Program-made: the position numbers and the translations under genes
Shown: positions 7,765-24,722 of the stretch, in pieces
Position numbering within the stretch: position 1 is the first letter of the stretch
Layout of the letters: each line of letters begins with the position of its first letter
NCBI GenBank assembly: GCA_043799545.1
Contig: JAZDNO010000028.1
Location: forward strand, 1-25,046
From: Methanobacteriota archaeon
Lineage (GTDB): Archaea > Thermoplasmatota > Thermoplasmata > SG8-5 > DAIRED01
Reading direction: 5' to 3'
DNA: 25,046 nt
Notes under the pieces: generated by a model
The model's input: only the letters and a program-made list of their open reading frames with translations
Told to the model about the DNA's origin: nothing
Database searches by the model: none

Positions 7765-8550
7765 TCAGACTGCTAGTTCCCCCTCGAAGACGGTCACCGC
7801 CTTCCCTAGAAGGAAAACCCTGCTCCTGCCCACCCTGACCCCGACGGTGCCGCCACGCTCCGACGCCTGGTATCCGACCAGCTCTTTCTTCCCCAGCATC
7901 TCCGACCAGTACGGCCCGAGGCAGCAGTGCGCGGAGCCGGTCACGGGGTCCTCGTTCACGCCGACGCCTGGCGCGAAGTACCGCGAGACGAAGTCGTACC
8001 TGCTGTCGTCCGACCGGGCCGTGGCCATCACGCGGTCCAGGGGCAGCTTCTTCATCAGCTCGAAGTCCGGCGCCAGCGAGCGGACGGCGCTATCGGAATC
8101 GAGCTCCGCCAGATAGCCGAGGCGGTTCTTGGCGACGTTGATTGGCGTTGTGCCGAGCACCTTCACCAGCGATGCGGGGGGCCGCGCTGCGACCGCGCGC
8201 TCGGCCGGGAAGTCCATTTCGATGCGGGCTCCCTTCCTGCTGGCTGTGAGAAGTCCGCTGCGCGTGAGGAATTTGGCCGCATCCCCCCTGCCCAGCAGCC
8301 CCGACTCCCACAGGACGTGGGCGCTCGCCAGGGTCGCGTGCCCGCAGAGGTCCACCTCCTTCCTGGGCGTGAACCAGCGCAGGCCGTAGCCGTCTTCTCG
8401 TTTGAGAAGGAACGCGGTCTCGGACAGGTTCATCTCCATCGCAACATTTTGCATCCAGGCGTCCGGCATCTTCCTGTCGAGGAGGCACACGGCGGCCGGG
8501 TTTCCGACGAATGGCTTGTCCGTGAAGGCGTCGACGTGGTAGAGCTTCAT
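7765..8550 (-). CDS. PhzF family (diaminopimelate epimerase-like) isomerase
   Basis: Real start at MKLYHVDAFT (8550). Motifs GNPAAV, EMNLSETAF, LRWFTP, EVDLCGHATLA and EDPVTGSAHC. Confidence 0.9.
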   Translation of the reverse strand: MKLYHVDAFTDKPFVGNPAAVCLLDRKMPDAWMQNVAMEMNLSETAFLLKREDGYGLRWFTPRKEVDLCGHATLASAHVLWESGLLGRGDAAKFLTRSGLLTASRKGARIEMDFPAERAVAARPPASLVKVLGTTPINVAKNRLGYLAELDSDSAVRSLAPDFELMKKLPLDRVMATARSDDSRYDFVSRYFAPGVGVNEDPVTGSAHCCLGPYWSEMLGKKELVGYQASERGGTVGVRVGRSRVFLLGKAVTVFEGELAV

Positions 8551-8673
8551 GGAGGACGGTAATGCAGGGGAGGGGAAAAGGGTTGCGCGCTTTTCCTCTA
8601 AAATCAATGCGTATTTCATAAAAAACCATGAAAATAAATATGTGGATGCTATACCGATTAATGGAGACATCGG

Positions 8674-9660
8674 TTGACTATTACGATACCACAAGAGTTC
8701 TGCATTCCGGCGATAGGCCTTCTTATAGGGATTTCTATCTTGGTTGAGTGGGTGCTATCAAAATATTTTCCCACAAGACCCCAATCAAAAACAATACGTA
8801 TTTTCATAGTCCATTCTATAACATTTATATTGATTTTTGCATTTGTTTATTTGCCCCCAATATCAACGGAACTTGATATTTCATCTAATATTTTTGTCAG
8901 CCTTAGTTTCTGTACGTGGATAATTATTCTATTTTATCACTTTAAAAAGGTGCTTGAGAAAGAATCGTTCGAGATAAAAAAATGGTTCAATCAAAGCATT
9001 TTTAAAAAGGCTGTATGCATGCTTGTTGTCATGATTGTGGTAGCGTTGGGTTTTAGTTGGTTTTTCTATGAAGGAGTCACAAAGAAAAATTCATCCTTTG
9101 AAACCATTTTTCGATTCGAAGGCCAAAACCAGACAAGTCCTCATAACACAGTTGTTTGTTTTTTCAGCTGTGATGGTCCACTGTGCGCCCAAAGACCATT
9201 TTATTTAGACAAATTTGAATTGTATGTTTCAGAACCTGAAAATGAACAACTAGAGAATTTTATGTTCTATTTATATATGCCAAACGGCCGAGGCTCTGTA
9301 GATGGCGACCCATATCATTATCTTAATTATGAATATGAATTTAAGGCGCCTCAATCTCCTCCTAACGGCTGGCAGTTTCCTACAACCTCCCATCCTAATA
9401 CTTCTTTCTCTTTTTACTTTGAAGGCATATACCTATTAGAGGGTGGGTTGCACTTAAATTTCAATCAATCGTCGTTTTTCGATCGTAACTTATCTGTAAA
9501 TAGCACCCCCTTGCAAGTTGAATCTTATCAAGTATATAACAATTATATATCGACTCGAATAACGATGGCCTCCTTGATTTTCGGCACCATCTTCGTGACA
9601 ATTCCTTCGACTTTTGTGGCATTGGCAAAGCTCTATGGCGATGATTTGAGGAAAAAGTAA
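8674..9660 (+). CDS. AT-rich integral membrane protein of unknown function
   Basis: 328 aa ORF with a TTG start, four N-terminal hydrophobic segments, a ~170 aa polar loop and one C-terminal TM. Sampled 60-nt lines here are 30-37% GC versus 63% in a sampled line of the adjacent PhzF-family gene. Confidence 0.7.
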   Translation: MTITIPQEFCIPAIGLLIGISILVEWVLSKYFPTRPQSKTIRIFIVHSITFILIFAFVYLPPISTELDISSNIFVSLSFCTWIIILFYHFKKVLEKESFEIKKWFNQSIFKKAVCMLVVMIVVALGFSWFFYEGVTKKNSSFETIFRFEGQNQTSPHNTVVCFFSCDGPLCAQRPFYLDKFELYVSEPENEQLENFMFYLYMPNGRGSVDGDPYHYLNYEYEFKAPQSPPNGWQFPTTSHPNTSFSFYFEGIYLLEGGLHLNFNQSSFFDRNLSVNSTPLQVESYQVYNNYISTRITMASLIFGTIFVTIPSTFVALAKLYGDDLRKK

Positions 9661-9669
9661 TTTCGAAGT

Positions 9670-10293
9670 CTACCGGTACCCCGGTATGTCCTTCTTCTTG
9701 CTGTACACCGTGTTCATGTCGAACTTCTGTAGCTCGCTCTCGAAGCGCTTGTCCAGAGTCTCCTTGCGCTTGCGCACCTTGGCCAGCTCGGCGTCCTCCT
9801 TGTCGAGCATGGCCCGTATCTTCCGGATTTCCTCCGGGAGCGAACCGTCGAACTCGAACCCCCCCATACCCAGGAGCGAAAGGGTGTTCCCCATGACCGC
9901 CAGTTCGAGCTTCATCTGGTCGCGCGCCCCCTCCTTGTAGACCCTCTTGTTGAGCTTTATCAGCACCTCGCGGTGGTTCTTCAGCGCCGTCAGGATGCTC
10001 TCGACGCGCTTGTTGGAGCTGAGCAGCAGCTCCTCGTTCTTCAGAAGGATGCGCTGCAGCTCGCCCACGGAGCCTTTCTCCCCGGGCTTGGCTTTCGAAG
10101 GCTCCAACCCTATCGCGTTGAGGATAATCTCCTCCCGCTTGATGCGCGTCTCCAGGCGCCCCTCGAGGCTCTGGATTCTGTTCTGATGGGCCCGGAGGCG
10201 GGCCTGCAGCTCGCGCAGCTTCCGCGCCGTTGACGCGCCCGCAGGTTTCTTGCGGGGCGCCGCCTTCCTCTGAGCCTTCTTCTTCTTTGGCAT
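9670..10293 (-). CDS. Hypothetical coiled-coil protein with Lys/Arg-rich N-terminal tail
   Basis: 207 aa with host-like codon usage, GAGGAG SD and a TTAATTAA TATA-like box 24 nt upstream. Heptad-rich helices; ends KKKDIPGYR. Confidence 0.8.
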   Translation of the reverse strand: MPKKKKAQRKAAPRKKPAGASTARKLRELQARLRAHQNRIQSLEGRLETRIKREEIILNAIGLEPSKAKPGEKGSVGELQRILLKNEELLLSSNKRVESILTALKNHREVLIKLNKRVYKEGARDQMKLELAVMGNTLSLLGMGGFEFDGSLPEEIRKIRAMLDKEDAELAKVRKRKETLDKRFESELQKFDMNTVYSKKKDIPGYR

Positions 10294-10314
10294 CGCTCCT
10301 CAAATGGGGCTCTG

Positions 10315-10326
10315 GCTTAATTAAGC
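10315..10326. promoter_or_regulatory. Perfect 12-bp palindrome GCTTAATTAAGC overlapping the TATA box, in the divergent region before ppsA
   Basis: Seen directly; its role as a promoter or operator is inferred from position. Confidence 0.45.
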
Positions 10327-10444
10327 TTCGCCTGCGGACGCGTGATTGTGTTTGTAAGCCGTTCGCAACAGCCATCATAATAGCGTCCGCGGGAAAAGGC
10401 TTATTAGCGGCAGCGCGATGCCCAAAGCCTGCAGGGACGGTACC

Positions 10445-12952
10445 ATGGAGAAGCATGAACGCAGCGTGCTCTGGTTCAGCGACATAGGCATCGGGGACGT
10501 GGCCATTGTCGGCGGAAAGAACGCGTCGCTGGGGGAGATGTACGCCAGGCTCCAGGAAAAGGGCGTGGCCGTGCCGAACGGCTTCGCAATCACCGCCAAG
10601 GCATACAGGCACTTTCTAAAGAAGGCGGGGATAGAGCACAGGCTCAAGGAGGCCATGACCGGGCTTGACGTGACGGACCTGGAGAACCTACATGCCTGCG
10701 GGGAGAAGGCGCGAGCCGTGGTGATGGGGGCCGAGATACCCGAAGACATCAAGGCGGAAATCGTCCAGGCATACGCCAAGCTTGGCGGTCGCAGGCGCGA
10801 TGTGGACGTGGCGGTGCGCTCGTCCGCAACAGCCGAAGACCTGCCGGACGCCTCGTTCGCGGGCCAGCAGGACACGTACCTGAACGTCCGGGGCGCCGAC
10901 GCGCTGCTTCAAGCCTGCAAGCGCTGCTTCGCGAGCCTCTTCACGGACAGGGCGATTTCGTACCGCCAGGAGAGGGGCTACGGCCATTTCTCGGTTTATC
11001 TGTCAATCGCGGTCCAGAGGATGGTGCGCTCTGATAGGGCCTCGTCCGGTATCATGTTCACCCTCGACCCGGAGTCGGGTTTCAGGGACCTGATAGTCAT
11101 CAACTCCTCGTGGGGCCTCGGCGAGTGCATCGTCGGGGGGAAGGTCATCCCTGACGAGTTCCAAATCTTCAAGCCAGTCCTTCCCAACGGGCGGAGGGCC
11201 ATCGTCGGCCGAAGGTGCGGCTCCAAGGACATCAAGGGGGTGTACAGCGAGGACCCCGAGAACCCCATCAAGACCGTGAAAACCTCAAGGAAGGAGCAGA
11301 ACGCTTACAGCATCACGAACGCCGAGGCCCTGAGGCTGGCGGACTGGGCGTGCATCATCGAGGAGCATTACAGCAACGAGGCGAAGTGGAACGCGAGGAA
11401 GGCGGGGAATCCCCTGCCGGCCAGCTTCCGCAGGTACATGGACATCGAGTGGGCCAAGGACGGCAAGACCGGCGAGCTTTTTATTGTGCAGGCCAGGCCG
11501 GAGACGGTCCAGAGCTCCAGGCAGATACGCAAGAACGAGAACGGCAAGGATTACTTCCTCGTCGAGAGCTACGAGTACGCAGTGCCGGTGGAGGAGGTCC
11601 ATGGCAAGCACCGCAAGCTGGCCGAGGGCATCTCCGTCGGGCGCAAGATTTCCTGCGGGACGGCGAGCGTGATAGACAGCCCGAAAGACATAGCCAAATT
11701 CAAAAAGGGCGACATCCTGGTCACGCGGATGACCGACCCGGACTGGGAGCCGATAATGAAGATGTCGGCCGGCATCATCACGGAGCAGGGCGGGAGGACG
11801 TGCCACACGGCCATATTGTCCAGGGAACTGGGGATTCCGTGCATCGTCGGAACGCAGACAGCGACCACGGCCATCCACAACGGCCAGAGGATAACCCTGT
11901 CGTGCGGCGAGGGGGAGCGGGGGATGGTTTACGAGGGGGACGTCCGCTTCATCGCGAGGAAGGACTGGGTCGAGGTCCCCAAGACCAAGACGAAGATACG
12001 CATGAACGCGGCGATACCGGAGACGGCGTTCGCCTTGGGCACACTGCCGAACGATGGCGTCGGACTCGCCCGCGTCGAGTTCATCATCGCGTCGCACATC
12101 GGAATTCACCCGATGGCGATGATTGATTACCCCAAGCTCAAGGACTCGCACGACCCCAAGGACAGGAAGCTGGCCGGGGAGATAGAGCGCCGGACCAAAG
12201 GCTGGGAAAACAAGTCCGACTTCTACTCAGACACGCTCGCCATGGGCATAGCCAAGATAGGCGCGGCCTTCTACCCCAACGAGGTCGTCGTGAGGATGTC
12301 CGACTTCAAGACGAGCGAGTACGCGAACCTCCTGGGCGGGGAGAAGTACGAGCCAAAGGAGAGGAGCCCGATGATAGGCTGGCGCGGAGCGTCGAGGTAC
12401 TACGACCCGCTGTTCCGGCCAGCCTTCGCGCTCGAATGCAAGGCCCTTAAAAAGGTCAGGGACGAGATGGGGCTCATCAACATCAAGGCTATGATTCCGT
12501 TCTGCCGCACCCCCAGCGAGGGAAGGAAGGTCATCCAGGTGATGAAGGACGAGGGCCTCGTCCAGGGGGAGAACGAGTTCGAGGTCTACGTCATGGCCGA
12601 GATTCCTTCTAACTGCATAGACGCCAACTCCTTCGCGGACATATTCGACGGCTTCAGCATAGGCTCGAACGACCTGACCCAGCTCGCCCTAGGCCTGGAC
12701 CGGGACTCGACCCTCGTCGCGCACATATACAACGAGCGTGAGCCGACGGTCAAGATGCTGATATCGCAGCTCATCAAGGTAGGGAAGGCTCGGGGCAAGA
12801 GGGTGGGCATATGCGGCCAGGCGCCCTCGGACTTCCCCGACTTCGCGGAATTCCTGGTGCAGTGCGGGATAGACAGCATGAGCCTGAACTCCGACACCGT
12901 GGTCAAGACGCGGCTCATAGTGGCCGAGGCGGAAAAGAAGTTCGGCATGTAG
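10445..12952 (+). CDS. ppsA: Phosphoenolpyruvate synthase (pyruvate, water dikinase)
   Basis: VGGKNASLGEM, AVRSSATAEDLPDASFAGQQDT, MDIEWAKDG, catalytic His in GGRTCHTAILSRELG, GFSIGSNDLTQ and GICGQAPS. Start at MEKHE after an SD-like GGGACGGT; 10418 is an alternative. Confidence 0.96.
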   Translation: MEKHERSVLWFSDIGIGDVAIVGGKNASLGEMYARLQEKGVAVPNGFAITAKAYRHFLKKAGIEHRLKEAMTGLDVTDLENLHACGEKARAVVMGAEIPEDIKAEIVQAYAKLGGRRRDVDVAVRSSATAEDLPDASFAGQQDTYLNVRGADALLQACKRCFASLFTDRAISYRQERGYGHFSVYLSIAVQRMVRSDRASSGIMFTLDPESGFRDLIVINSSWGLGECIVGGKVIPDEFQIFKPVLPNGRRAIVGRRCGSKDIKGVYSEDPENPIKTVKTSRKEQNAYSITNAEALRLADWACIIEEHYSNEAKWNARKAGNPLPASFRRYMDIEWAKDGKTGELFIVQARPETVQSSRQIRKNENGKDYFLVESYEYAVPVEEVHGKHRKLAEGISVGRKISCGTASVIDSPKDIAKFKKGDILVTRMTDPDWEPIMKMSAGIITEQGGRTCHTAILSRELGIPCIVGTQTATTAIHNGQRITLSCGEGERGMVYEGDVRFIARKDWVEVPKTKTKIRMNAAIPETAFALGTLPNDGVGLARVEFIIASHIGIHPMAMIDYPKLKDSHDPKDRKLAGEIERRTKGWENKSDFYSDTLAMGIAKIGAAFYPNEVVVRMSDFKTSEYANLLGGEKYEPKERSPMIGWRGASRYYDPLFRPAFALECKALKKVRDEMGLINIKAMIPFCRTPSEGRKVIQVMKDEGLVQGENEFEVYVMAEIPSNCIDANSFADIFDGFSIGSNDLTQLALGLDRDSTLVAHIYNEREPTVKMLISQLIKVGKARGKRVGICGQAPSDFPDFAEFLVQCGIDSMSLNSDTVVKTRLIVAEAEKKFGM

Positions 12953-12995: not shown

Positions 12996-15914
12996 ATGTT
13001 CGCGAAGGCCGTCGCGCTGACGCTTGCGATATTCCTAGGCTTTCCAGCTCTTATCGGCGTGGCGTCTCCGTCGGACACAGGCGCTCCAGCATCCGTCGAG
13101 TGCGCGCCCGTCCAGGCCGCGGCGGCGAACTTCTCCGCCGAGGCCGAGATACGGACTATACTGTCAGTGATTGACCAGCCATTCCTGTCTGGCTACGTCC
13201 AGACGCTTCAGGACTTCGGCACACGATACGCCTATACGCCGTTTTGCATGGATGCCGCGAAGTACATCGAAGGGGAGTTCATCGGGTGCGGTCTCGAGAC
13301 GAGCGTCCAGGACATGGAATACATGGGCCATAGGATAAGGAACGTCGTGGGGGTGCTGCCGGGAACTGGCTCCGCTGCCGGCGAAACCGTGATAGTTTGC
13401 GCCCATTACGACTCTTACTCCGAGATGTTATATTGGTCCGCGCCAGGAGCCGACGACGACGCCTCCGGACCCGCGGGGGTCCTTGCTGCCGCAAGGCTTC
13501 TGGTGGGCATGCAGTTCAACCGCACCATCAAATTCATAGCGTTCGGAGGGGAGGAGCTGGGCCTGGTCGGGAGCGATTATTACTCCGAGCTGGCGTGGTC
13601 TTCGGGCGAATCCATCGCCGGAGTCCTGAACATGGATATGATTTCACACAACCACGATCTCCACACGATAGACGTTTACACGGATGACAATTCGGCCGCG
13701 CTCGCCTCGCGCTACCACGACATCTGGGACAAGTACAAGGACATCATCGGCGACCCAGAGCCGGCGGTCATCAACGAACCGAATGCGGGATGGAGCGACC
13801 ACGCGCCCTTCTGGCAGCGGGGCTTCCAGGCACTATGCATCATCGAAACTGATTTCAGCGACCACTACCACACGACGGACGATACGATTGCCACGATAAA
13901 CATGACGTACATGCAGGGGGCGTTCAGGAACGCTGTTGCTGCGGCTTGTGAGATTGCCGAGATGAGCGCCGGGGATTCCACGCCGCCCGCGGTCTCCGCG
14001 CCGTCGCCAGCGCCGGATTCTGCCGGCAACTCCACCCCGGTGATTTCCGTTGGATTCTTCGACGCTTCGGGCGTCAACGCCAGCTCGTGCAAGCTCTACG
14101 TGAACGGCTACAGGGTGATGTGCGATTTGGCTCCCGCGCCCCTGGGGTACACCCTGTCTTACTGGCACGACGGCGGCTTCCAGAGCGGGTCCACGGTCAG
14201 GTGCAAGGCGATGGCATCCGATGCTGGCGGGCACGGGGCTGTCTTCTGGTGGAACTTCACGGTGGACACGACCCCGCCTCTCCCCCCGGAGACTGCCAAC
14301 GCGAGGTTCCTGGCCGTCGAGCCCGACAAGGCCGACGCCGTCTTGACAGCGGGGCCGGGATTCGAGGATTCGACCGGCGTGGCTTCGCCTTCCGTGCTTT
14401 ACGCCGGCGGTGAGTTCAGGCTGTGGTACACCGGCCTTCAGGAAGGGGTATTCAGGCGGATAATGGCTGCGAGCTCCTGCGACGGCTTTTCATGGCAGAA
14501 ACAGGGCGTGGTCTTAGACGTCGGGACGGCGGGGGAGCCTGACTACAGAGGCGCCACCGATTGCTCGGTCATCCTCGACGGAACATACAAGATGTGGTAC
14601 ACGGGGCACGACGTGGATGTCACTCGGGTTCTGTACGCAGAATCGCCCGACGGAGTTGTGTGGACGAAGCTTGGAATCGCAATCGCCAATGGCACGGGCC
14701 GCGAGCCAGATTCGTGGGGGGCCTCCTCTCCCACGGTGCTCGCCCGGAACGGAAGCTACGTCATGTGGTACACGGGATGGGACGGCGTCGAGTGGCGCGT
14801 GATGAGGGCGACGTCGGCGGACGGGCTGACCTGGGTCAAAGATGGCGTGGCGCTCTCCCGAGGCGGTTTCAATGACAGGGACAGGATGGGGGCTTCGGAC
14901 CCCGACGTTTCGATAATCGACGGCGAGTACGTCATGAGGTACACGGCCACCGAGGACATGTCGGTCAAGAGCATTCTGGAGGCCCGTTCAGTCGATGGAA
15001 TCTCTTGGATGCGCACTGGCGCGCACATCATGCCCGGGATGCCGTGGGAAGCCGATTCGAAGTACGTCCGCGCCTCCAGCGCGGTAGTGGTCGACGGCAT
15101 CGAATACACGTTTTACACGGGCAAGGGCGATCCCTACGAGGAGGTCATTTTCATTGCGTTGAGGGAGATGCAGACCCTGAAAAACGAGCTTGTTCTAGAA
15201 TGGTGCCCGTCCGCCTCATCCGACGTAACTGGCTATTCGGTCCGCTTGGCGGAGGATTGGGCGGAACTCCAAAGCGGTTCGGGAACGGTCTACAGGGCGC
15301 CGGGAACATATCTCGTGCTGCCGTATGCCGGCGTCGCCAACCTTTCCGGGGCATTCGCCAAAATAACTGTCTGGGACGTCGCCGGCAACTCGGCGGAGAC
15401 TTGGTACGCCATCGGCAAGACGTCGATGATGATGGAATTCGAGTGGGAGCTCGTGTCATGCCCGTACGCGGCGGAAGGCACAGGCATCGCGCAGGCGCTG
15501 GATACCCTGGTGTGGGATTACGCAATGGCGTATTCCGGTAACCCTGGCGACACCTGGCAAACAAACCATTATTTGCGCGCCGACGACCTGGACGACCTGA
15601 AAGTCATCGGGCCCGGGATGGGGCTGTGGCTTCAGGCGCAGACGGGCCAGTATCTGGCGACGTGCGGAATCGTGCAGAACATGACAATCCAGCTGCGGAC
15701 GGGCTGGAACCTTGTCTCGTACCCTCATCCATACGATATGACCGCGGCAGCTGTCGCGGCGGAAATCGGGCCGGCCTGCCAGGCCATCGAGGCCTTCGAT
15801 TATGCATTGGAATACATGACAGATGTTCTGGAGCCGTACGAGGCGATGGCCCCCGGCAGGGGGTACTGGGTGAAGGTCAGTGCGGACACCGCCTGGACGG
15901 CTGTGAATTACTAG
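12996..15914 (+). CDS. Secreted multidomain M28 metallopeptidase with Ig-like, five-bladed beta-propeller and C-terminal repeat domains
   Basis: Signal peptide (MFAKAVALTLAIFLG). Full M28 ligand set AHYDS, GADDDASG, GEELGL, NMDMI and SDHAPF. Five P-x-V...Y-x-MWYTG...S-x-DG-x-x-W repeats. Paired C-terminal W-x-LVS-x-P and PG-x-G-x-W motifs. Confidence 0.85.
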   Translation: MFAKAVALTLAIFLGFPALIGVASPSDTGAPASVECAPVQAAAANFSAEAEIRTILSVIDQPFLSGYVQTLQDFGTRYAYTPFCMDAAKYIEGEFIGCGLETSVQDMEYMGHRIRNVVGVLPGTGSAAGETVIVCAHYDSYSEMLYWSAPGADDDASGPAGVLAAARLLVGMQFNRTIKFIAFGGEELGLVGSDYYSELAWSSGESIAGVLNMDMISHNHDLHTIDVYTDDNSAALASRYHDIWDKYKDIIGDPEPAVINEPNAGWSDHAPFWQRGFQALCIIETDFSDHYHTTDDTIATINMTYMQGAFRNAVAAACEIAEMSAGDSTPPAVSAPSPAPDSAGNSTPVISVGFFDASGVNASSCKLYVNGYRVMCDLAPAPLGYTLSYWHDGGFQSGSTVRCKAMASDAGGHGAVFWWNFTVDTTPPLPPETANARFLAVEPDKADAVLTAGPGFEDSTGVASPSVLYAGGEFRLWYTGLQEGVFRRIMAASSCDGFSWQKQGVVLDVGTAGEPDYRGATDCSVILDGTYKMWYTGHDVDVTRVLYAESPDGVVWTKLGIAIANGTGREPDSWGASSPTVLARNGSYVMWYTGWDGVEWRVMRATSADGLTWVKDGVALSRGGFNDRDRMGASDPDVSIIDGEYVMRYTATEDMSVKSILEARSVDGISWMRTGAHIMPGMPWEADSKYVRASSAVVVDGIEYTFYTGKGDPYEEVIFIALREMQTLKNELVLEWCPSASSDVTGYSVRLAEDWAELQSGSGTVYRAPGTYLVLPYAGVANLSGAFAKITVWDVAGNSAETWYAIGKTSMMMEFEWELVSCPYAAEGTGIAQALDTLVWDYAMAYSGNPGDTWQTNHYLRADDLDDLKVIGPGMGLWLQAQTGQYLATCGIVQNMTIQLRTGWNLVSYPHPYDMTAAAVAAEIGPACQAIEAFDYALEYMTDVLEPYEAMAPGRGYWVKVSADTAWTAVNY

Positions 15915-16184: not shown

Positions 16185-16256
16185 GCGGGTGTAATCTAGT
16201 GGTTAGGATTTCAGCCTTCCAAGCTGAACACTCGGGTTCGAATCCCGACACCCGCA
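16185..16256 (+). tRNA. tRNA-Gly (anticodon TCC), intronless, CCA not encoded
   Basis: Cloverleaf: acceptor GCGGGTG/CACCCGC, D arm ATCT/GGAT, anticodon arm TCAGC-CTTCCAA-GCTGA, 4-nt variable loop, T arm TCGGG-TTCGAAT-CCCGA, discriminator A. Confidence 0.97.
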
Positions 16257-16587: not shown

Positions 16588-16899
16588 GGCGCTAGGCTCG
16601 ACCGGGGGGTTCGGCGTCCCCTTTTACACCAAAATCGTCGTCAGTGGGGGTGACAGCTGGATGCGGCGCGCCAGTCCCGTGCGGGTCCTGCGCATGACCG
16701 TGAGGCCTTGTCCTGCGGGGCGGGTGGCGGCATCGCGGCGCAGCCGGAGGGCGGCGCTCTTTGCCATGGTCGCGGGGAACGGGTCAGGCCCTGAAGGGAG
16801 CAGCCTAACCGCGGATTACCCACGCTCGCGGGGTAGCGGGACCGAGAAGTGCGCAGACCAATCCGTGCGAAGGCTGGTCGACAAGTTCAGCGGCCTAGT
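16588..16899 (+). ncRNA. ffs: Archaeal signal recognition particle (7S) RNA
   Basis: 5' GCTAGGC...CCGGGGGGTTCGGCGTCCCC Alu-domain signature; helix 6 CC-GGAG-GG tetraloop; helix 8 CAGG-CCC-TGAA-GGG-AGCAG; helix 1 GCTAGGC/GCCTAGT; helix 2 TCGACC/GGTCGA; about 312 nt. Ends approximate. Confidence 0.9.
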
Positions 16900-16900
16900 A

Positions 16901-16916
16901 TTTCCTCTTTATTTTC
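16901..16916 (+). terminator. Pyrimidine/oligo-T tract after the SRP RNA
   Basis: TTTCCTCTTTATTTTC immediately after helix 1; archaeal intrinsic terminators are oligo-T tracts. Confidence 0.5.
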
Positions 16917-17027
16917 AGGCCGCTGAAAGGCCTAGCGGTCTCCGTCATTTTCCGAACAAGGAGCTAGGCCGGCTCCACGGCAAGGACTACATGCACTCAG
17001 TCTTGCCGTGGCCGAAGCAACACGGAA

Positions 17028-17765
17028 TCACTTCTTCAACCTCTTCGCCCCGAACCACGCCACGTCGCCCCTCTCCTCGAACCCCGCCCCCTTGCACATC
17101 TCATAGCTGGCTTCGTTTGTCTTGAACACGTAGCAGTAGGGGGTTAGGTCCATGCCGTACAGCCTGTGCGTGAGGTCGATGGTTATTCTGTTGCCGAACC
17201 CCATGCGCCTGTATTTCCTGAGCGTGTGGGCGAATCCCAGCTCCGCCACCTTGTCCGTGACGAAATGGTTACCTCCCCATGATGCCAGCTCGCCGTCCAC
17301 TCGGATGCAGGCGCTCGGATATTTTTTGATGCATTCGCGTATGTGCGGCAGCGGGTGGTCGTGCAGGCTCCACAGCCTCGCCACCGTGGGCGCATCCTTC
17401 TGGCGCAGTGGCATGAGGTTCTCCCACCCTCCATTCGGGCGCTTGGGCATCGGAGCCACAAGGGTCCAGCAGGGGGATTTCCAATCCATGACGTACCTGC
17501 GGCGGACCTGCTCGTAAGCCCCGAAGGGAGCGCCCGAGGACCAGAACGGGGCCTTGGGTAAGAGATGGAACGGCACCTCCGCCCCGTTCCAATCGCCACA
17601 GAACATCGCATGCCTTCCCCTGACGGCGACGACGCTGTTACCGTCCGTCCAGACTTTGTATTTCTCCCCTTCGCTGAAAATCTTGTGTATAAGGATTCCG
17701 TTCATCACCGGGTCCTTGTCCAGGAGCCTCCTCAAACCGGCCATGCCCTCGAATGGCTCAAACAA
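17028..17765 (-). CDS. GNAT acetyltransferase (C-terminal FR47-like domain)
   Basis: AELGFAHTLRKYRRMGFG (motif A) and NEASYEMCKGAGF. TTG start overlaps the mptE stop by 8 bp; a slightly later ATG is possible. Confidence 0.75.
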   Translation of the reverse strand: MFEPFEGMAGLRRLLDKDPVMNGILIHKIFSEGEKYKVWTDGNSVVAVRGRHAMFCGDWNGAEVPFHLLPKAPFWSSGAPFGAYEQVRRRYVMDWKSPCWTLVAPMPKRPNGGWENLMPLRQKDAPTVARLWSLHDHPLPHIRECIKKYPSACIRVDGELASWGGNHFVTDKVAELGFAHTLRKYRRMGFGNRITIDLTHRLYGMDLTPYCYVFKTNEASYEMCKGAGFEERGDVAWFGAKRLKK

Positions 17766-18439: not shown

Positions 18440-21400
18440 TTAATCCTTTTCTTCCGATATCACGACTAGGCAGTTCTTCTCCCCGTCCGCCATGCTCTTT
18501 TTGAGCTGAACGTCGAACGGCTTTTTCGCGCGGGACGCGAATCTCCAGGCAATCCCCCTGCAGAGGACGCAGAGGAGGATGTTGCGGCTCTTCTGGTTGT
18601 CCCACGGGCATCCGCTGATGCTCACCGAGCATGTCGCCGGGCAGGGACGCTTGTTTGCCTTGCACGCCTCCTCGTCGGGGCACACGAGCATAGATTTGCC
18701 GCCCAGGTCGGCCAGCACGCTGATGTATGCGCCGGCGACTTCCTGGGCCGTCTGAGATGACATTTCCACTGGGTACTTGGCCAGCAGGACGGTGTCGAGG
18801 CGCTCCGACAGCTTATCAACCAGGTCGGCCCGCCCCCCCTTGTCCATGGAGCCGAGCATTACGGGAACGATGTCGGTTATGACCGACATCAGCTTGAACT
18901 GGGCTTCTAGGACTTGGCGCTGGACATCCTCCGATTGGCGCTTCTTGACCTCGGTGATGTCCTTGACGATTCCGACGATGAAGAGGTCGTGGCCGAGCAT
19001 GTACTCTGAAATCGATATCTCCGCGTCGAAAGTGCTGCCGTCCTTGCGCAACGCCTTGAACTGGTACCTGTTCGGGGCGTGCTCGCCGGACTCCCTGGCT
19101 TGCGCGTAGGTCGCCATGCGCTCCCTGTCTTCAGGAGCGATTGTGTCCCCGGCGCACTTGCCCACGATCTCCTCGACGGTCCTGAACCCGTACATGCTAG
19201 CGAAGGAAGGGTTGACGTATGCGAACCGGCCCTTGCTCTCGACACCGATGCCGTCGATGGACGCATGGAACAGCGCCTTCAATCTCTCCTCGGAGCTCCG
19301 GACATTCTCCTCTGCCGCCTTCCTTTCCGTCACCTCGCGCACGACGGCCACCGCACCCCGGTAACGGCCGCTTTCCATGGTCGGCGAGAGCTTGGCCACG
19401 TACCATCTTCTTGTTTCGCCGAAATCGAGCCAGTATTCATACTCCGAAACCGAGCCGCTCCTGGCTCTTTCAAGGGCGTCCGCGGTCAGTTTCGAAGCCT
19501 GGGGCGGCAGTATGTCCGAGTACAGCTTTCCGTTGAAATAATCTGGCTCGGCGTACAGGTCATCTCTGTTCGAAGCGTGGTAGAAATTGAATCTCCCCTC
19601 CGTGTCGAAGCCGAAGACCAGATCGTCCATCGAGCTCATTATGTTGTGGAGTTTCGTCTCGGAGGCGACGAGTTCGCTCTCTGTCTTCTTGCGCTTGGTG
19701 ATGTCCCTCACCATCGCCAGGAGGTATTCCTTTGCGTTGAACCTTACCAGATTGAGGCTGACCTCGGCGTCGAAAAGCGAGCCGTCGGGGCAGACATGCA
19801 TCCATTCGAAGAACTGCGGCTTTCCAGAGAACGCAGTCTGAATGAGCTCTTTGGCTTTCTCGTCTGAAGCCCTCCCGTCCGGCTGCCTGGGCGGCGAGAA
19901 GTTGTAGGGCTGCTGGCCGATAATCTGCTCCCGTGTACACTTGAACATAGCGAGCGTCTTGAGGTTGCAGTCCACGAATGTGTTTCCGTCCATGAGGAAG
20001 ATGGCGTCGTGCGCCATGTCGAAGAGGGTCTTGTACTTCGTCTCGCTCTCGTAAAGCATCGCCTCGGCGTCTTTGCGCTCGCTGAGGTTTCTGATAATCA
20101 GCATGTCCGCCGGCTTTCCAAGGTACTGGATGACTCCGGCGTTTACCTCCACTGGCAATATCGATCCGTCCGGGCGCTTGAGCTTGGTCTCGTATATCGA
20201 TGGGGCCGGCTCCCCCCTCATCCTGCGGGCGTACATATCCGCAATCTTGGGCTTTTCCTCGTCCGAGATTGCCTCAAGGATGCTCGTGTTGTATGCGTCT
20301 TCGCCTTTGTATCCAGTCATGCGCAAGGCGCTCTCGTTGAAGAATACGGGTTTTTCGTTCTGGACGATTACGATTCCATCCCTCGCCCTCTCGACCAGAT
20401 TGCGGTATTTTTCCTCACCCTCGCGCAGCGCCTCCTCGACCTTTTTACTCTCGGTCACATCCCTTACTATGCCCAGTATGGCGCGCACCTTGCCATCGGC
20501 GCCTTTCAACAGAGCGCTGCTGACCTCGCCATCGTAGCGGGTCCCGTCCTTTCGCAGGAGCGTGTAATAAGTGACGAGATGGGTCTCTGACTTCAGCAGC
20601 CTTGACAAATCCTCGAAGGCCCGTTCGTTGTCCTCTGGCGCTATCAGCTCCATGAAGTTTTTCCCGGCGACCTCATCCATCGATTCGTAGCCGCTGATTT
20701 CCAGCGCCCTATGGGAAGCATACGTCAGCCTGCCGTTCAGGTCGCTGATGACGACCGCCTCCGGCATCATCCTCAGTATGTTTCTCTGGAGGTCCTCCGC
20801 CTGCGAAAGCTCCGCGCTCACGCGCTTGAGCTGGCTGATGTCGGTGATTATGCCGAGGATGGCGGGTTCGCCCTCGTATCTGATGGGCTTCGAGTTGATG
20901 AGAACCTCGAACCTGCGCTTGTCTTTTGTGAGCAGCGTGTACTCATAAGGGGCGCTCTCAATGCCATCGAAGCGTTTCTGCGCGTTCTCACGGACCCTTT
21001 TCCGGTCCTCCGGCGCTACGAGGCTCAGGAAGTCGAAACCTTCTGCGTAGAATTCGTCGGGCGCGTAGCCCATGGTCTCGGCGCACTTCCTGTTGGCGTA
21101 GACGACCTTCCCCAAGCGGTTGATGAAAATCATGTTTGGCGAGTTGTCGGCCAGCTCGCGGAACTTTGCCTCGCTCTCCTCCAGCGCCTTCTGGGACTTC
21201 TTCCGCTGCGTTACGTCGATGTTGAACTCGGCGACGACCCACTCGCCGTCATCGCCCCTGAACGGAATTGTGTGCACCTCGATGTGCCTGTCCTCTTTTA
21301 TCAGGTACTCCTCGGAAATGGTTGTCTTCTTGGTATCGAGGGCGGTCTTGATTGCGCAGGTATCGCATGGAGCGAATGTGCCCATGAAGTAGTCGTGGCA

Positions 21401-22525
21401 CTTCTTGCCCCTGTAATCCCCGAGGGTATTGGCCCACGCCGGGTCGACGTAGATCACGTTGTAATCGGCATCGACGATGTCGAACCCCGTGTGCGTGGCG
21501 CCCAGGATGTACTCCAGCCGGTCCTTTACAACCTTCAGCTCTTCGTTCACCCGCTGGCGTTCCGCCATCTCTTCCTTCAGCTTGGCCGTCCGCTTCTCGA
21601 CCAGCTCCTCCAGATGCTCGCGGTACTTCGAGATTTCTGCCTCGCTCGCCTTGAGGTCCGCGATGTCGTTCGCGACGCAAAGAATCGAAACGACCTTGCC
21701 GTTCTTGTCGTGGATGGGCGTCGCGCTGAGCAGCACCGGTACGTAGGCTCCGCATTTGGTCAGCACCCTGTACTCGATGTTGTGCATCCCCTTGCCCCGG
21801 GAGACGCTCGAGACCTGGCGGTGCGCCCTGTCGACGTCGTCCTCGTGGATGACGGTGAAGAAGTTTATGCTGTGCGCCTCCTGCATCGAGTATCCGAACA
21901 CGTTCTGGAACGTGCTGTTCGCGAAGATGAGGCTCCCCTTGAGGTCGAGCGTGAACATGGCGATGGAAGGGGTGTCCGCGAGCTGCCTGTACTTCTCCTC
22001 GGAAGCCTTCAGGTCGTCCTCGATTTTCTTCCTCTGGGTGATATCCTCGACGAGGCCTAATACGTAGAACGTCTCCCCCACAACGATTAGGGAATAGTGC
22101 ATCTCGAGGTTCCGGTACTTTCCATCGGAGCCCATGATGCGGACATCGCAGCTCGAGTTTTCCCCCTGGATGGTCCTCATCACAGTCTCGTGGGACTTCA
22201 CCCTGTCGTCTGGGTGGACGTAGCCTCCGGCCCTCTTGCCGACCCATTGCTTCGGGTCGTGGGAGAGTATCCTTCCAGAGGCTGGGTTTATAAGCACGTA
22301 CTTGAAGTCCTCGTCGATGAGGAACAGCCCCTCGTTCATGTTCTCCAGTATCGCATCCAGAATCTTCAGGCGCTCCGCGTCGCCTATCGGCATGGATGAG
22401 CCCGCCGTACCGTTCGCGTGCTCAGCCGGGCGCTCGCCGCTGAAGCTGGCATCGCGCTTGCCCGCCGCATCTGCGCTGGCCGCCTTCCCCCGTTTGACCA
22501 CAGCTTCCCCCTCGCTCCGGCTCAC
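18440..22525 (-). CDS. Cytoplasmic sensor with nine PAS domains and a C-terminal Cys-rich MetOD1/V4R-like domain; no kinase
   Basis: Nine PAS/PAC repeats ending in DIT/DVT-like motifs, with a coiled coil after PAS2. C-terminus GCPW...LCVLCRGI...GEKNCLVVI. No TM, H-box or HATPase motifs. GTG start overlaps the kaiC TGA (GTGA). Confidence 0.88.
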   Translation of the reverse strand: MSRSEGEAVVKRGKAASADAAGKRDASFSGERPAEHANGTAGSSMPIGDAERLKILDAILENMNEGLFLIDEDFKYVLINPASGRILSHDPKQWVGKRAGGYVHPDDRVKSHETVMRTIQGENSSCDVRIMGSDGKYRNLEMHYSLIVVGETFYVLGLVEDITQRKKIEDDLKASEEKYRQLADTPSIAMFTLDLKGSLIFANSTFQNVFGYSMQEAHSINFFTVIHEDDVDRAHRQVSSVSRGKGMHNIEYRVLTKCGAYVPVLLSATPIHDKNGKVVSILCVANDIADLKASEAEISKYREHLEELVEKRTAKLKEEMAERQRVNEELKVVKDRLEYILGATHTGFDIVDADYNVIYVDPAWANTLGDYRGKKCHDYFMGTFAPCDTCAIKTALDTKKTTISEEYLIKEDRHIEVHTIPFRGDDGEWVVAEFNIDVTQRKKSQKALEESEAKFRELADNSPNMIFINRLGKVVYANRKCAETMGYAPDEFYAEGFDFLSLVAPEDRKRVRENAQKRFDGIESAPYEYTLLTKDKRRFEVLINSKPIRYEGEPAILGIITDISQLKRVSAELSQAEDLQRNILRMMPEAVVISDLNGRLTYASHRALEISGYESMDEVAGKNFMELIAPEDNERAFEDLSRLLKSETHLVTYYTLLRKDGTRYDGEVSSALLKGADGKVRAILGIVRDVTESKKVEEALREGEEKYRNLVERARDGIVIVQNEKPVFFNESALRMTGYKGEDAYNTSILEAISDEEKPKIADMYARRMRGEPAPSIYETKLKRPDGSILPVEVNAGVIQYLGKPADMLIIRNLSERKDAEAMLYESETKYKTLFDMAHDAIFLMDGNTFVDCNLKTLAMFKCTREQIIGQQPYNFSPPRQPDGRASDEKAKELIQTAFSGKPQFFEWMHVCPDGSLFDAEVSLNLVRFNAKEYLLAMVRDITKRKKTESELVASETKLHNIMSSMDDLVFGFDTEGRFNFYHASNRDDLYAEPDYFNGKLYSDILPPQASKLTADALERARSGSVSEYEYWLDFGETRRWYVAKLSPTMESGRYRGAVAVVREVTERKAAEENVRSSEERLKALFHASIDGIGVESKGRFAYVNPSFASMYGFRTVEEIVGKCAGDTIAPEDRERMATYAQARESGEHAPNRYQFKALRKDGSTFDAEISISEYMLGHDLFIVGIVKDITEVKKRQSEDVQRQVLEAQFKLMSVITDIVPVMLGSMDKGGRADLVDKLSERLDTVLLAKYPVEMSSQTAQEVAGAYISVLADLGGKSMLVCPDEEACKANKRPCPATCSVSISGCPWDNQKSRNILLCVLCRGIAWRFASRAKKPFDVQLKKSMADGEKNCLVVISEEKD

Positions 22526-23991
22526 TTCTCGAAGAAACCCTCCACCTCGTCCGCAATGGCTTTGCGGGGGGTTCCAGACATCAGCCCGACCACGCCCTCG
22601 AACTTCTTGCCGATGGTTATTCCGCGCTCGGATATCGAATACTCGCGAATCTCCCTGACGTGCTTGCTGCCGCGCACCTTGAGGACGTTTAGCGCCTTCT
22701 TCATCTCCGAGCCAATCTCCACGAACCTGAGCATGACGACTGCGTCCACAATGAACGACGTGCCGGTGTTGGTTATCTTGCCAGCTCCAATCAGCTCCGG
22801 CGCCTCCGACGTGAGGATTGTGGTGATGCCCCTGCTCCTGAACTCGGACGTGAGGGTCGAGAGCAGTGCGCGAAGCATGCCCTCGCTCATTGCGGGCTCG
22901 TAGTCCGTTATGGAGTCAATCAGAACCCTGGAAACGCCGTCAAGGCTGGCGACAATCTCGTTCATGTGGCGGCTGGCCTCGATGTTGCGCGGGTGGGTGT
23001 AGATGATTTTGACGAGCCTTTTGGCCTCGTGTCCGGCGATGTCTATGCCCACGTTCATCGCGTTGCGCCTGAGCTGCTCCGGAGGCTCCTCGAACGAGAC
23101 GACGAGGCACTTCTCGCCCTTCTTCGCTCCCTCGTCGACGAACTGCAGGCCGAAGATGGTCTTACCTGTCCCAGCTGAGCCGGTGACGAGTATCGAATCT
23201 CCGGCGAGCGCGCCCCCGCCTAGCATCTCGTCCAGGCCCGGCAGGCCGGTGTTCACCCGCTCCTGCTTGGACTTCGAGCCCTCGGGGGGCGGCATCATCG
23301 GATAGACCGCCAGACCAGCGTTGGAAATCCCGAATCCGTGTTCTCCGGCCGAGTAGGACGAGCCGCGCATCTTGCGGATGTCCAAAGTCCTCCTGCCAGC
23401 GCGGTTCGAGAGGAGCACGATGCTGTCCGCCACGAACTCCTCGACGCCGTTGCGCGACAGCTTCCCCTCCTCGTTCACCTCGGTCGTGATGATTGACGTC
23501 AAACCCAATGTCTTCATTGCGCTAGTGAGCCGGAAGAGCGCCCCCCTGTAATCGTTGTCGCAGCCGTAGCGGATTCCGAGCGATGCTATGCCATCGAGCA
23601 CGACCCGCTTGATTCCCTTGTCCCGGACCCAGCTCTCGATAATCTCAATGACCACGTCCGCGTCGAGGACCGAGTGGGCTCCGCCGCGCTCGTCTGGAAT
23701 TGTGGACATCCTGCGTATCACGGAGAGGTCGAAGAACCACGCCTTCTCCGACAACGCGTCGAGGTCCTTCCGCATCGCCTCCGGGATGTTGTCGAGGATG
23801 TTCTGCCGGCTCTCCTCGAATGTGATGAAGAGCCCTGGCTCCCCAGATTTGGCTCCGTTGAGCAGGAACCCGACCGTGAAGATGGTCTTGCCGGTCCCGC
23901 TGCCTCCCGAAACAAGGTTGACGGAGCCGTTGTTGAAACCCCCGTTCGATATCTTGTCGAAACCCGAGACACCAGTAGCTATCTTTTTCAT
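22522..23991 (-). CDS. kaiC: Double-domain KaiC-like ATPase (489 aa)
   Basis: Real start MKKIATG at 23991. CI: GGSGTGKT, FEES, KMRGS. CII: GSAGTGKT, FEEP, KVRGS. ITNTGTSF aligns with the KaiC phosphorylation loop. Confidence 0.92.
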   Translation of the reverse strand: MKKIATGVSGFDKISNGGFNNGSVNLVSGGSGTGKTIFTVGFLLNGAKSGEPGLFITFEESRQNILDNIPEAMRKDLDALSEKAWFFDLSVIRRMSTIPDERGGAHSVLDADVVIEIIESWVRDKGIKRVVLDGIASLGIRYGCDNDYRGALFRLTSAMKTLGLTSIITTEVNEEGKLSRNGVEEFVADSIVLLSNRAGRRTLDIRKMRGSSYSAGEHGFGISNAGLAVYPMMPPPEGSKSKQERVNTGLPGLDEMLGGGALAGDSILVTGSAGTGKTIFGLQFVDEGAKKGEKCLVVSFEEPPEQLRRNAMNVGIDIAGHEAKRLVKIIYTHPRNIEASRHMNEIVASLDGVSRVLIDSITDYEPAMSEGMLRALLSTLTSEFRSRGITTILTSEAPELIGAGKITNTGTSFIVDAVVMLRFVEIGSEMKKALNVLKVRGSKHVREIREYSISERGITIGKKFEGVVGLMSGTPRKAIADEVEGFFEK

Positions 23992-24431
23992 TTTACTCCC
24001 CCCCCGGCGAGCGCAGCCCCGTTGCCGCGTGCCATCCTCTGCGTGACGAGCTTGGCCACGGTCGGCCCGAATATTTCCGAGAGCGCGCCGTTCACCGCCT
24101 CGACGTATTTCTCTGGCTCGGCCGCGGCGTCTATTCCGCGCGTCCTTTGTCCCAGAATGGATTCGAACTCCTTGGCGTATCCCTCGCCGAGCGTCTCCTC
24201 GAGGACTCCTTCGACCCTCGCGGGCATCTCGCGCACGGCCGCGCCCTTGAGCGCGTCCTGCTGGTGCACGTACTCCATGTACCTGCGCGTGGCGTCGCGG
24301 ATGAAGTCGTTCGGAGTGCTCCACGCGTATTCGGGATGCGCGGCGATGATTTCCTCGACCTGGTGCATCATCGCCTTGGAAATCCTGACGCCCACCCACT
24401 TGCGCGTGTCGTCCTGCTCCTCGGTCGCCAT
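23988..24431 (-). CDS. Ribbon-helix-helix (CopG/MetJ-like) regulator with a C-terminal helical domain
   Basis: KWVGVRISKAMMHQVEEII...STPNDFIRDATRRYME is a beta-strand plus two helices. C-terminal ALSEIFGPTVAKLV resembles DUF3227-type modules. Stop overlaps the kaiC ATG. ATG 24431 (TTG 24440 alternative). Confidence 0.75.
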   Translation of the reverse strand: MATEEQDDTRKWVGVRISKAMMHQVEEIIAAHPEYAWSTPNDFIRDATRRYMEYVHQQDALKGAAVREMPARVEGVLEETLGEGYAKEFESILGQRTRGIDAAAEPEKYVEAVNGALSEIFGPTVAKLVTQRMARGNGAALAGGGVK

Positions 24432-24461
24432 CGTTCTCAACCATGGATAATATAATACATA

Positions 24462-24479
24462 TAGGTTTCCAATGACCTA
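24462..24479. promoter_or_regulatory. Inverted repeat TAGGT-N8-ACCTA beside the AT-rich promoter of the RHH operon (candidate operator)
   Basis: Seen directly; the arms are short, so chance occurrence is possible. Confidence 0.3.
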
Positions 24480-24722
24480 CTTTTTGTTGGGTTTCTATCA
24501 GTTTGGCTTATACGACAGAGCATGGAAGCACTCCTTGGGCTGTTCTAACGGATGGGAACCGTCACTTGGGGATGAGCGGTTCCGCTACAGGTTGTGGGCT
24601 CGTTTCGAAGAAGCGTAGCCGGGGGGTGTTTGGCGTAAATCCTTTAGAAAATGAGAACTCTCGTGATATGATTAAATAGAAGCAAAATATTACATCATAT
24701 GATAATATGAGGAGAAAATAAA

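Follow-up and report, generated by a model that had tools for sequence, protein, structure and literature searches.

A putative KaiC-centred signalling operon pairing an RHH-like protein with a KaiC-like ATPase and a nine-PAS/MetOD1 sensor in a Thermoplasmata archaeon

Archaeal KaiC-like ATPases were reportedly proposed as hubs of signal transduction by Makarova, Galperin and Koonin in 2017; to our knowledge, the idea has since yielded almost no defined, testable pathway. A locus that may supply one lies on contig JAZDNO010000028.1 of a Thermoplasmata archaeon (assembly GCA_043799545.1, here G000; 2.06 Mb, 94% complete). This contig, C20 of the assembly, was analysed over its whole 25,046 bp and is called the window. 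Three co-oriented open reading frames (ORFs) on its minus strand, arranged head to tail, encode a small ribbon-helix-helix (RHH)-like protein, a KaiC-like ATPase and a sensor that is soluble and combines nine PAS domains with a MetOD1 domain at its C terminus (Table 1). The prediction made for this operon shares with the hub proposal an expanded KaiC family, a KaiC gene in a conserved neighbourhood with PAS input and DNA-binding-type output, and a purely genomic basis; it departs from that proposal in that the window KaiC is two-domain and clock-like, is strictly paired with a previously unnamed family joining an RHH-like to a helical domain, and belongs to a genome in which no histidine kinase is detectable. 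By gene neighbourhood and expanded paralogues the locus fits the proposed hub class and is, as far as sequence comparison can place it, a lineage-specific variant of it. The reading favoured here, to which we give a probability of about one half, is that the sensor would modulate the KaiC hexamer and that KaiC would in turn control the RHH-like protein.

In cyanobacteria, the output of the clock is wired from KaiC through SasA/CikA to RpaA. The window protein shares with KaiC of the cyanobacterial KaiABC system the double-domain build, both Walker A motifs, both pairs of glutamates and a serine equivalent to S431, and in one related genus a histidine kinase and a receiver (REC) protein follow the kaiC gene. 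It differs in that neither KaiA nor KaiB was found in the window genome, that phenylalanine occupies the T432 position, that its scores fall below the equivalog cut-offs, that in place of the C-terminal KaiA-binding tail it has a short ...VEKFF end, and that its candidate output belongs to the RHH class and not to the OmpR-type regulators. The first three of these differences place it outside the circadian KaiC equivalog.

KaiC homologues of Pseudomonas bind the PAS domain of a neighbouring kinase, and in vitro the PAS domain is sufficient for this binding (Terrettaz et al.; bioRxiv 10.1101/2022.01.26.477890), which provides a precedent for contact between PAS proteins and KaiC. The Pseudomonas and archaeal systems resemble each other in encoding KaiC together with a PAS protein and, as predicted for the archaeal one, in a role in stress and signalling, not a clock; unlike the kinase-less archaeal sensor, which comes with RHH as the fixed partner of KaiC, the PAS partner in Pseudomonas is itself a histidine kinase, accompanied by a response regulator. 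MetOD1 was named as the output domain of methanogen response regulators of REC-PAS-MetOD1 and REC-MetOD1 architecture (Galperin et al., 2018; PMC5847659). The window sensor ends in the same domain, with the same three conserved cysteines, and has REC-PASn-MetOD1 orthologues in a sister genus; it differs in having no REC domain, in belonging to a KaiC operon, and in its host, in which neither mcrA nor a histidine kinase is detectable. Literature searches on archaeal KaiC proteins associated with RHH or CopG proteins, which did not cover the 2017 hub paper, found no description of an RHH-KaiC-PAS/MetOD1 operon. The window adds the kinase-less and apparently ancestral form of the system, the kinase-free genome background, the test of the RHH assignment, and the wider link between MetOD1 and KaiC.

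The three-gene architecture and domain content had been proposed in an earlier sequence-only reading; all three ORFs exist, and the Pfam domains agree with that description. The most constant part of the locus is its first two genes. The small protein is encoded in 15 of 61 related genomes and in further public metagenome-assembled genomes, and of the 17 loci that extend far enough, which come from several families of the class, all 17 have a double-domain KaiC gene directly after it. What stands after KaiC varies: a PASn-MetOD1 gene directly follows it at five loci (the window, L031, L032, L034 and L036); at four loci of one genus (L033, L035, L037 and L038) a membrane HisKA_2/HATPase_c kinase and then a REC-PASn-MetOD1 protein are found; a polytopic membrane protein of 516-521 amino acids (aa) occupies the position at three (L039-L041), and unrelated genes do so at five distant loci. 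The RHH-KaiC pair thus stands without the sensor at eight loci. The trio that the sequence-only reading expected to be conserved is present in nine genomes of one order, where it is kept across three families with otherwise unrelated flanks, but the invariant unit is the RHH-like protein with KaiC, and PAS-MetOD1 is one of several third genes. A fixed pair with interchangeable third genes is the pattern of a fixed transmitter and output with swappable inputs. The membrane protein of L039-L041 (L039 11903-13459, L040 4128-5678, L041 11908-13473) was considered as a diverged sensor and rejected (BLASTP E 0.86); it has about 13 transmembrane (TM)-like windows and a weak stretch resembling the S component of energy-coupling factor transporters (NF045596, E 1e-19, below cut-off).

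The RHH-linked KaiC is a single chromosomal copy with vertical inheritance. In the KaiC tree, the loci with a kinase form a clade nested among trio members, with a kinase-less member as its sister (support 100/99), which argues that kinase and receiver were added later. The kinase-less form is older and apparently ancestral. The description of the operon as kinase-free therefore needs narrowing: it is true of the window, but in one genus this operon includes a membrane HisKA_2 kinase and a REC domain, and freedom from kinases is thus no inherent property of the system. The features of a two-component system, a histidine kinase and a receiver, are absent from the three window proteins and present only in that sister genus.

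The assembly contains 36 KaiC-domain matches and one REC domain; HATPase_c is matched just three times, by GyrB, MutL and Topo VI-B. HisKA_2 has no match in G000, and tblastn of the assembly with the kinase and receiver of the relatives found nothing, which makes it unlikely that the sensor has a partner kinase at another locus. Such a kinase was among the findings that the sequence-only reading had named as fatal to it, and none was found in the 94%-complete assembly. That reading had also reported no kaiA, kaiB or response regulator in the window, which agrees with the lack of REC and HATPase_c domains on the contig; KaiB (PF07689) and KaiA (PF07688) have no match anywhere in the 94%-complete assembly, although this is not proof of their absence. 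McrA likewise has no match in G000, which places MetOD1, the "methanogen output domain", in an apparently non-methanogenic archaeon.

PAS-MetOD1 genes also adjoin other KaiC genes, in three further contexts (contig C18 of G000 with its counterparts in G001 and G002; G029; and L065). The other MetOD1 protein of G000, a PAS4-MetOD1 protein of 837 aa, is encoded on C18 after a CheB-CheR-PAS fusion of 999 aa (locus L002, G000:C18:54000-66000); its gene is convergent with a group of KaiC-like, DUF835, Roadblock and KaiC-Arf-GTPase genes, and the same arrangement recurs in G001 and G002. One KaiC domain of this contig (C18:59577-60233) has an in-frame TAG. In another family of the class, a PAS-MetOD1 ORF of 439 aa abuts a single-domain KaiC of 231 aa (G029:C15; L055 6287-8302, minus strand); this two-gene module has no RHH gene and lies between genes for an iron-dependent alcohol dehydrogenase (Fe-ADH) and a glycerate-kinase-like protein. 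Family f3 instead has MetOD1 in short REC-MetOD1 regulators encoded next to kinases, so that MetOD1 proteins are linked to receivers in some cases and to KaiC genes in others. By a rough estimate, the chance of finding a KaiC gene within 1.5 kb of a random gene here is about 5%; four independent MetOD1-KaiC contexts among roughly a dozen exceed that rate, in what is an informal comparison.

The KaiC-like protein matches PF06745 twice (E 8e-102) and aligns with solved KaiC chains over its full length (E 4e-93), and it scores below the NCBIfam equivalog cut-offs (NF006799, 400.9 vs 408; TIGR02655, 324.7 vs 546.25). Alignment to solved KaiC locates a Walker A motif and a glutamate pair in each half: GGSGTGKT at residues 29-36 and FEE with catalytic E59/E60 in CI, GSAGTGKT at residues 271-278 and FEE with E301/E302 in CII. 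Residue by residue, Ser412 aligns with cyanobacterial S431 and Phe413 with T432, and the same S-[FYHN] pattern is found at these positions in order-level orthologues; replacement of T432 by phenylalanine makes the ordered two-site phosphorylation cycle impossible. Motif conservation was judged in 16 orthologues: every member of the order-level clade with a third gene has the CII glutamate pair and the serine. Both are lost at the distant pair-only loci L042, L027 and L026; of two further distant pair-only loci, L044 has lost the glutamate pair and L028 has kept it, and both have threonine at the serine position. The protein ends in ...VEGFFEK in the window, and a conserved ...VEKFF tail is present in all orthologues.

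The small protein has no match in Pfam or NCBIfam, and a profile search of solved structures with it gave marginal matches only. Over its first ~50 residues it can be aligned to six bona fide RHH_1 domains encoded in G000 (hhalign probability 92.3%, E 5.4e-7, 38 columns), and in two relatives RHH_1 is matched, with 20.8 and 19.2 bits. Short stand-alone proteins, numbering in the hundreds and including some that Pfam assigns to RHH_1, match this N-domain only; its strand and second helix carry conserved basic or polar residues (VRxS, DFxRDAxRR). In the AlphaFold2 model (predicted local distance difference test, pLDDT, 70.8) the RHH strand is not formed in the monomer; model residues 10-68 match RHH antitoxins and an RHH ParB over their whole chains at Z 4.8-5.4, which is low (VIA-align RHH matches 6a6x_D, 7ycv_A, 3no7_B, 7b22_A and 5ceg_A), and a Foldseek search with the whole model returned nothing at E <= 0.001. 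The RHH label first given on sequence alone has moderate support from the hhalign probability of 92% and these low-Z structure matches. The helical C-domain (~66-135) is specific to the family, with structure matches only to unspecific helical bundles, and the full-length family comprises eight clusters at 50% identity among 1.84 billion representatives, none of them with a name. A DEATH-like C-domain was considered and set aside, since the pyrin/death-fold and SRP54-N matches (Z 5-6.8) lie within the noise for helical bundles, and the similarity of an LpxK fragment (P0039) to the C-domain profile, at 1.5e-9, probably reflects composition. One metagenomic protein of 188 aa from the broader RHH collection (P0034) has an N-domain matching the RHH profile (E 4e-10) fused directly to a PAS domain.

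For the sensor, Pfam and NCBIfam searches and hydropathy bear out the earlier description of nine PAS domains and MetOD1 with no kinase, receiver, GGDEF or TM segment. The PAS domains lie at about residues 56-166, 177-290, 348-442, 453-568, 580-694, 705-818, 830-944, 965-1069 and 1080-1194, followed by MetOD1 (PF18546) at 1215-1356 (50.9 bits, cut-off 23.8); HisKA, HATPase_c, REC and GGDEF have no match in either database, and no window is TM-like (maximum KD19 1.33). PAS3 (window 21200-21484, minus strand) carries the cluster C376-x10-C387-x2-C390, a possible metal or cofactor site. In MetOD1, three cysteines are invariant in 12 homologues (C106, C119 and C152 of alignment A4), with CPW and LCxLCRG motifs. 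Its AlphaFold2 model (pLDDT 77; predicted template modelling score, pTM, 0.72) finds Bet3/TRAPPC3 first by Foldseek (E 3e-4, template modelling score 0.56), then H-NOX (E ~1e-2) and the V4R protein MJ1460, in agreement with the similarity described by Galperin et al. (2018; PMC5847659). The V4R-like character assigned to MetOD1 in the sequence-only reading is borne out by this fold match, but with a ligand-binding fold of the V4R/H-NOX/Bet3 type it may be a sensor or a docking domain and not an output domain. A search of longer proteins for KaiC-MetOD1 fusions found none; it returned only six PASn-MetOD1 proteins.

Taken together, the fixed pair, the swappable third genes and the recurrent adjacency of PAS-MetOD1 and KaiC genes are best fitted by KaiC as transmitter, PAS/MetOD1 as input and the RHH protein as output. 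Also in favour of this reading, the PAS-MetOD1 protein of the relatives with kinase and REC receives a phosphorelay, which puts MetOD1 on its output side. The core would be a complex-forming pair of an RHH-type protein with a unique helical C-domain and a KaiC-like hexameric ATPase, the hexamer being predicted to be catalytically competent, with a single conserved serine at the S431 position. The nine-PAS/MetOD1 protein would serve as a cytoplasmic input for multiple signals that has no enzymatic output of its own and binds KaiC through its PAS domains, its V4R-like MetOD1 or both; binding would shift the ATPase or autophosphorylation state of KaiC. Depending on that state, the RHH protein would be retained on KaiC by way of its C-domain or released for DNA binding, the released protein then changing transcription. 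A more specific version is put forward tentatively: an ancestral histidine kinase-free pathway in which the PAS/V4R sensor sets the ATPase or single-serine state of KaiC and KaiC directly gates the RHH factor through a helical KaiC-binding domain, the phosphorelay having been added later in one genus.

Several points weigh against the KaiC-centred pathway. Its protein contacts, phosphorylation, DNA binding and direction of flow are all inferred, and the relay of PAS input by KaiC to an RHH factor is drawn from gene context only. Support for the RHH fold is moderate, with Pfam silent, a probability of 92% and Z of about 5, and no operator-like repeats were found in the promoter 5' of the small gene. 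MetOD1 could be a further sensor domain and not a docking surface. With some 36 KaiC domains in 2 Mb, some chance adjacency to KaiC is expected. In one genus, moreover, the gene order KaiC, histidine kinase, REC protein also fits the opposite direction of flow.

That opposite direction defines a rival in which RHH-KaiC is an autonomous switch or hourglass timer with PAS-MetOD1 as a downstream effector, and the sole task of the RHH protein is autoregulation of the operon. A KaiC-controlled kinase would lead to the effector in one genus, as in KaiC-SasA-RpaA. The order of KaiC, kinase and REC-PASn-MetOD1 at four loci mirrors that wiring, and the KaiC is close to the clock type (E 4e-93; NF006799 400.9 vs 408). 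MetOD1, moreover, received its name as an output domain of response regulators (PMC5847659). On the other hand, nine PAS domains and a V4R/H-NOX-like ligand-binding fold resemble input, and neither an enzymatic nor a DNA-binding output is present in the sensor. The form with the kinase is derived, the assembly yielded no KaiB or KaiA, and phenylalanine at T432 rules out the ordered two-site cycle. This direction is unlikely. Rather unlikely too is that the small protein is a co-factor or adaptor of KaiC, an analogue of KaiA or KaiB in which the RHH fold serves only for dimerising, with the output elsewhere, such as another KaiC paralogue or the MptE-like enzyme encoded downstream. The strict pairing with overlapping genes, the unique helical C-domain, a conserved ...VEKFF tail of KaiC that could be a docking peptide, the lack of any operator repeat found in the promoter and the linkage of an MptE-like gene to the sensor gene in two families would all suit an adaptor, but the basic and polar residues of VRxS and DFxRDAxRR fit a DNA-reading RHH domain, and hundreds of stand-alone RHH proteins match the N-domain.

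The two remaining explanations concern the coherence of the operon and the kind of module it represents. The sensor might share no function with the RHH-KaiC pair and be merely co-transcribed with it, as the eight loci with the pair and no sensor and the very high frequency of KaiC genes in the genome might suggest; this is improbable given that the trio is kept across three families with otherwise unrelated flanks, that PAS-MetOD1 genes stand independently beside other KaiC genes, and that the sensor itself lacks an output domain. A different kind of RHH-ATPase module, either DNA segregation of the ParG/ParF type or a toxin-antitoxin or defence pair, is brought to mind by the structural neighbours of the N-domain, which are RHH antitoxins and an RHH centromere-binding ParB. 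The ATPase, however, is a full-length KaiC and belongs neither with the ParA/ParF Walker ATPases nor with toxin folds, the locus is a vertically inherited single chromosomal copy with normal GC and no signs of mobile elements nearby, and the partners are PAS, REC and histidine kinase proteins; such a module is very improbable.

Should the more specific version hold, the KaiC pathway would be a working alternative to two-component signalling in an archaeon without histidine kinases, a class of proteins that the host appears to have dispensed with altogether. The operon offers a compact, testable pathway of three soluble proteins, in which a clock-like KaiC has its catalytic residues and one phosphosite and the RHH protein is the strictly co-inherited candidate output; natural variants swap the input among a soluble PAS sensor, a membrane protein, and a kinase with a receiver. 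For MetOD1, an uncharacterised domain, the recurrent adjacency of PAS-MetOD1 and KaiC suggests a role.

Table 1. Features of the operon and the adjoining gene (positions in the 25,046-bp window)
Feature	Position	Strand	Remarks
BRE/TATA-like box	24447..24470	-	purine-rich GGAAAC (B recognition element, BRE-like) and TATA-like CTATATGTATTATATTAT; ~20-35 nt before ATG of small gene
Small two-domain protein, 147 aa	23988..24431	-	RHH-like N-domain ~12-55; helical C-domain ~66-135
Double-domain KaiC-like ATPase, 489 aa	22522..23991	-	PF06745 twice; starts at ATG 23991 (MKKIATGV...)
Soluble sensor, 1353 aa	18440..22501	-	GTG 22501; a start at GTG 22525 would give 1361 aa
Nine PAS domains	18944..22360	-	each segment passes a Pfam PAS-family gathering score
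MetOD1 domain, PF18546	18458..18883	-	V4R/H-NOX/Bet3-like fold; invariant Cys at sensor residues 1306, 1319 and 1352
MptE-like gene, PF01973, 218 aa	17758..18414	-	Pfam 48.3 bits; 25 nt downstream of sensor

The promoter-like box of the operon reads GGAAACCTATATGTATTATATTAT in the window, and a box of the AGAAA...TATAT type lies 25-35 nt before the orthologous start in nearly all relatives; its position just 5' of the small gene and its recurrence indicate that the small gene is the first of the operon. The mRNA of this gene is inferred to be leaderless or to have a very short leader. The only inverted repeat upstream, at 24666-24700, was discarded as an operator since it lies in the AT-rich promoter of the divergent gene, and a scan for bacterial-type promoters and terminators is uninformative for an archaeon.

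Of the two start/stop overlaps described in the sequence-only reading, ATGA at 23988-23991 holds, the true KaiC start overlapping the TGA of the small gene by 4 bp; the same overlap recurs in relatives (L035 10441-10444; L018). A 640-aa ORF at 22522-24444 was rejected as a longer KaiC, its first 150 residues being an Arg/Gly-rich out-of-frame reading over the real small gene. The second overlap, GTGA at 22522-22525, is present, but as a sensor start it does not stand, there being no start codon at that position in L031 of the same genus. The start common to both is the GTG 24 nt further on (TTG in L031), which is preceded by GAGGG and agrees with the 1353 aa of the public gene call. The sensor probably starts there, which leaves a gap of ~20 nt after KaiC in place of an overlap and does not affect the operon reading.

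No T-tract terminator lies between the sensor and the MptE-like gene, which is a possible fourth gene of the operon. An MptE-like gene also follows the PASn-MetOD1 gene in L035, L054 and L056, and no other flanking gene is common to these loci; in G000 it is single-copy.

Elsewhere in the window, an archaeal signal recognition particle (SRP) RNA (RF01857, 139 bits) is found at 16590-16900 and a tRNA-Gly(TCC) at 16185-16256, both on the plus strand; a 154-aa ORF at 16661-17125 overlaps the SRP RNA and is probably spurious. The stretch 8001-10000 has a GC content of 0.45-0.52, against ~0.60 elsewhere in the window, and may be foreign DNA or a non-coding region; the ORFs there (8674-9660, plus strand; 9461-10612, minus strand) have no Pfam matches. 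A gene of the phosphoenolpyruvate synthase/pyruvate phosphate dikinase type at 10418-12952 precedes a plus-strand gene (12996-15914) for a 972-aa protein with an M28 peptidase domain and a weak GH130-like stretch.

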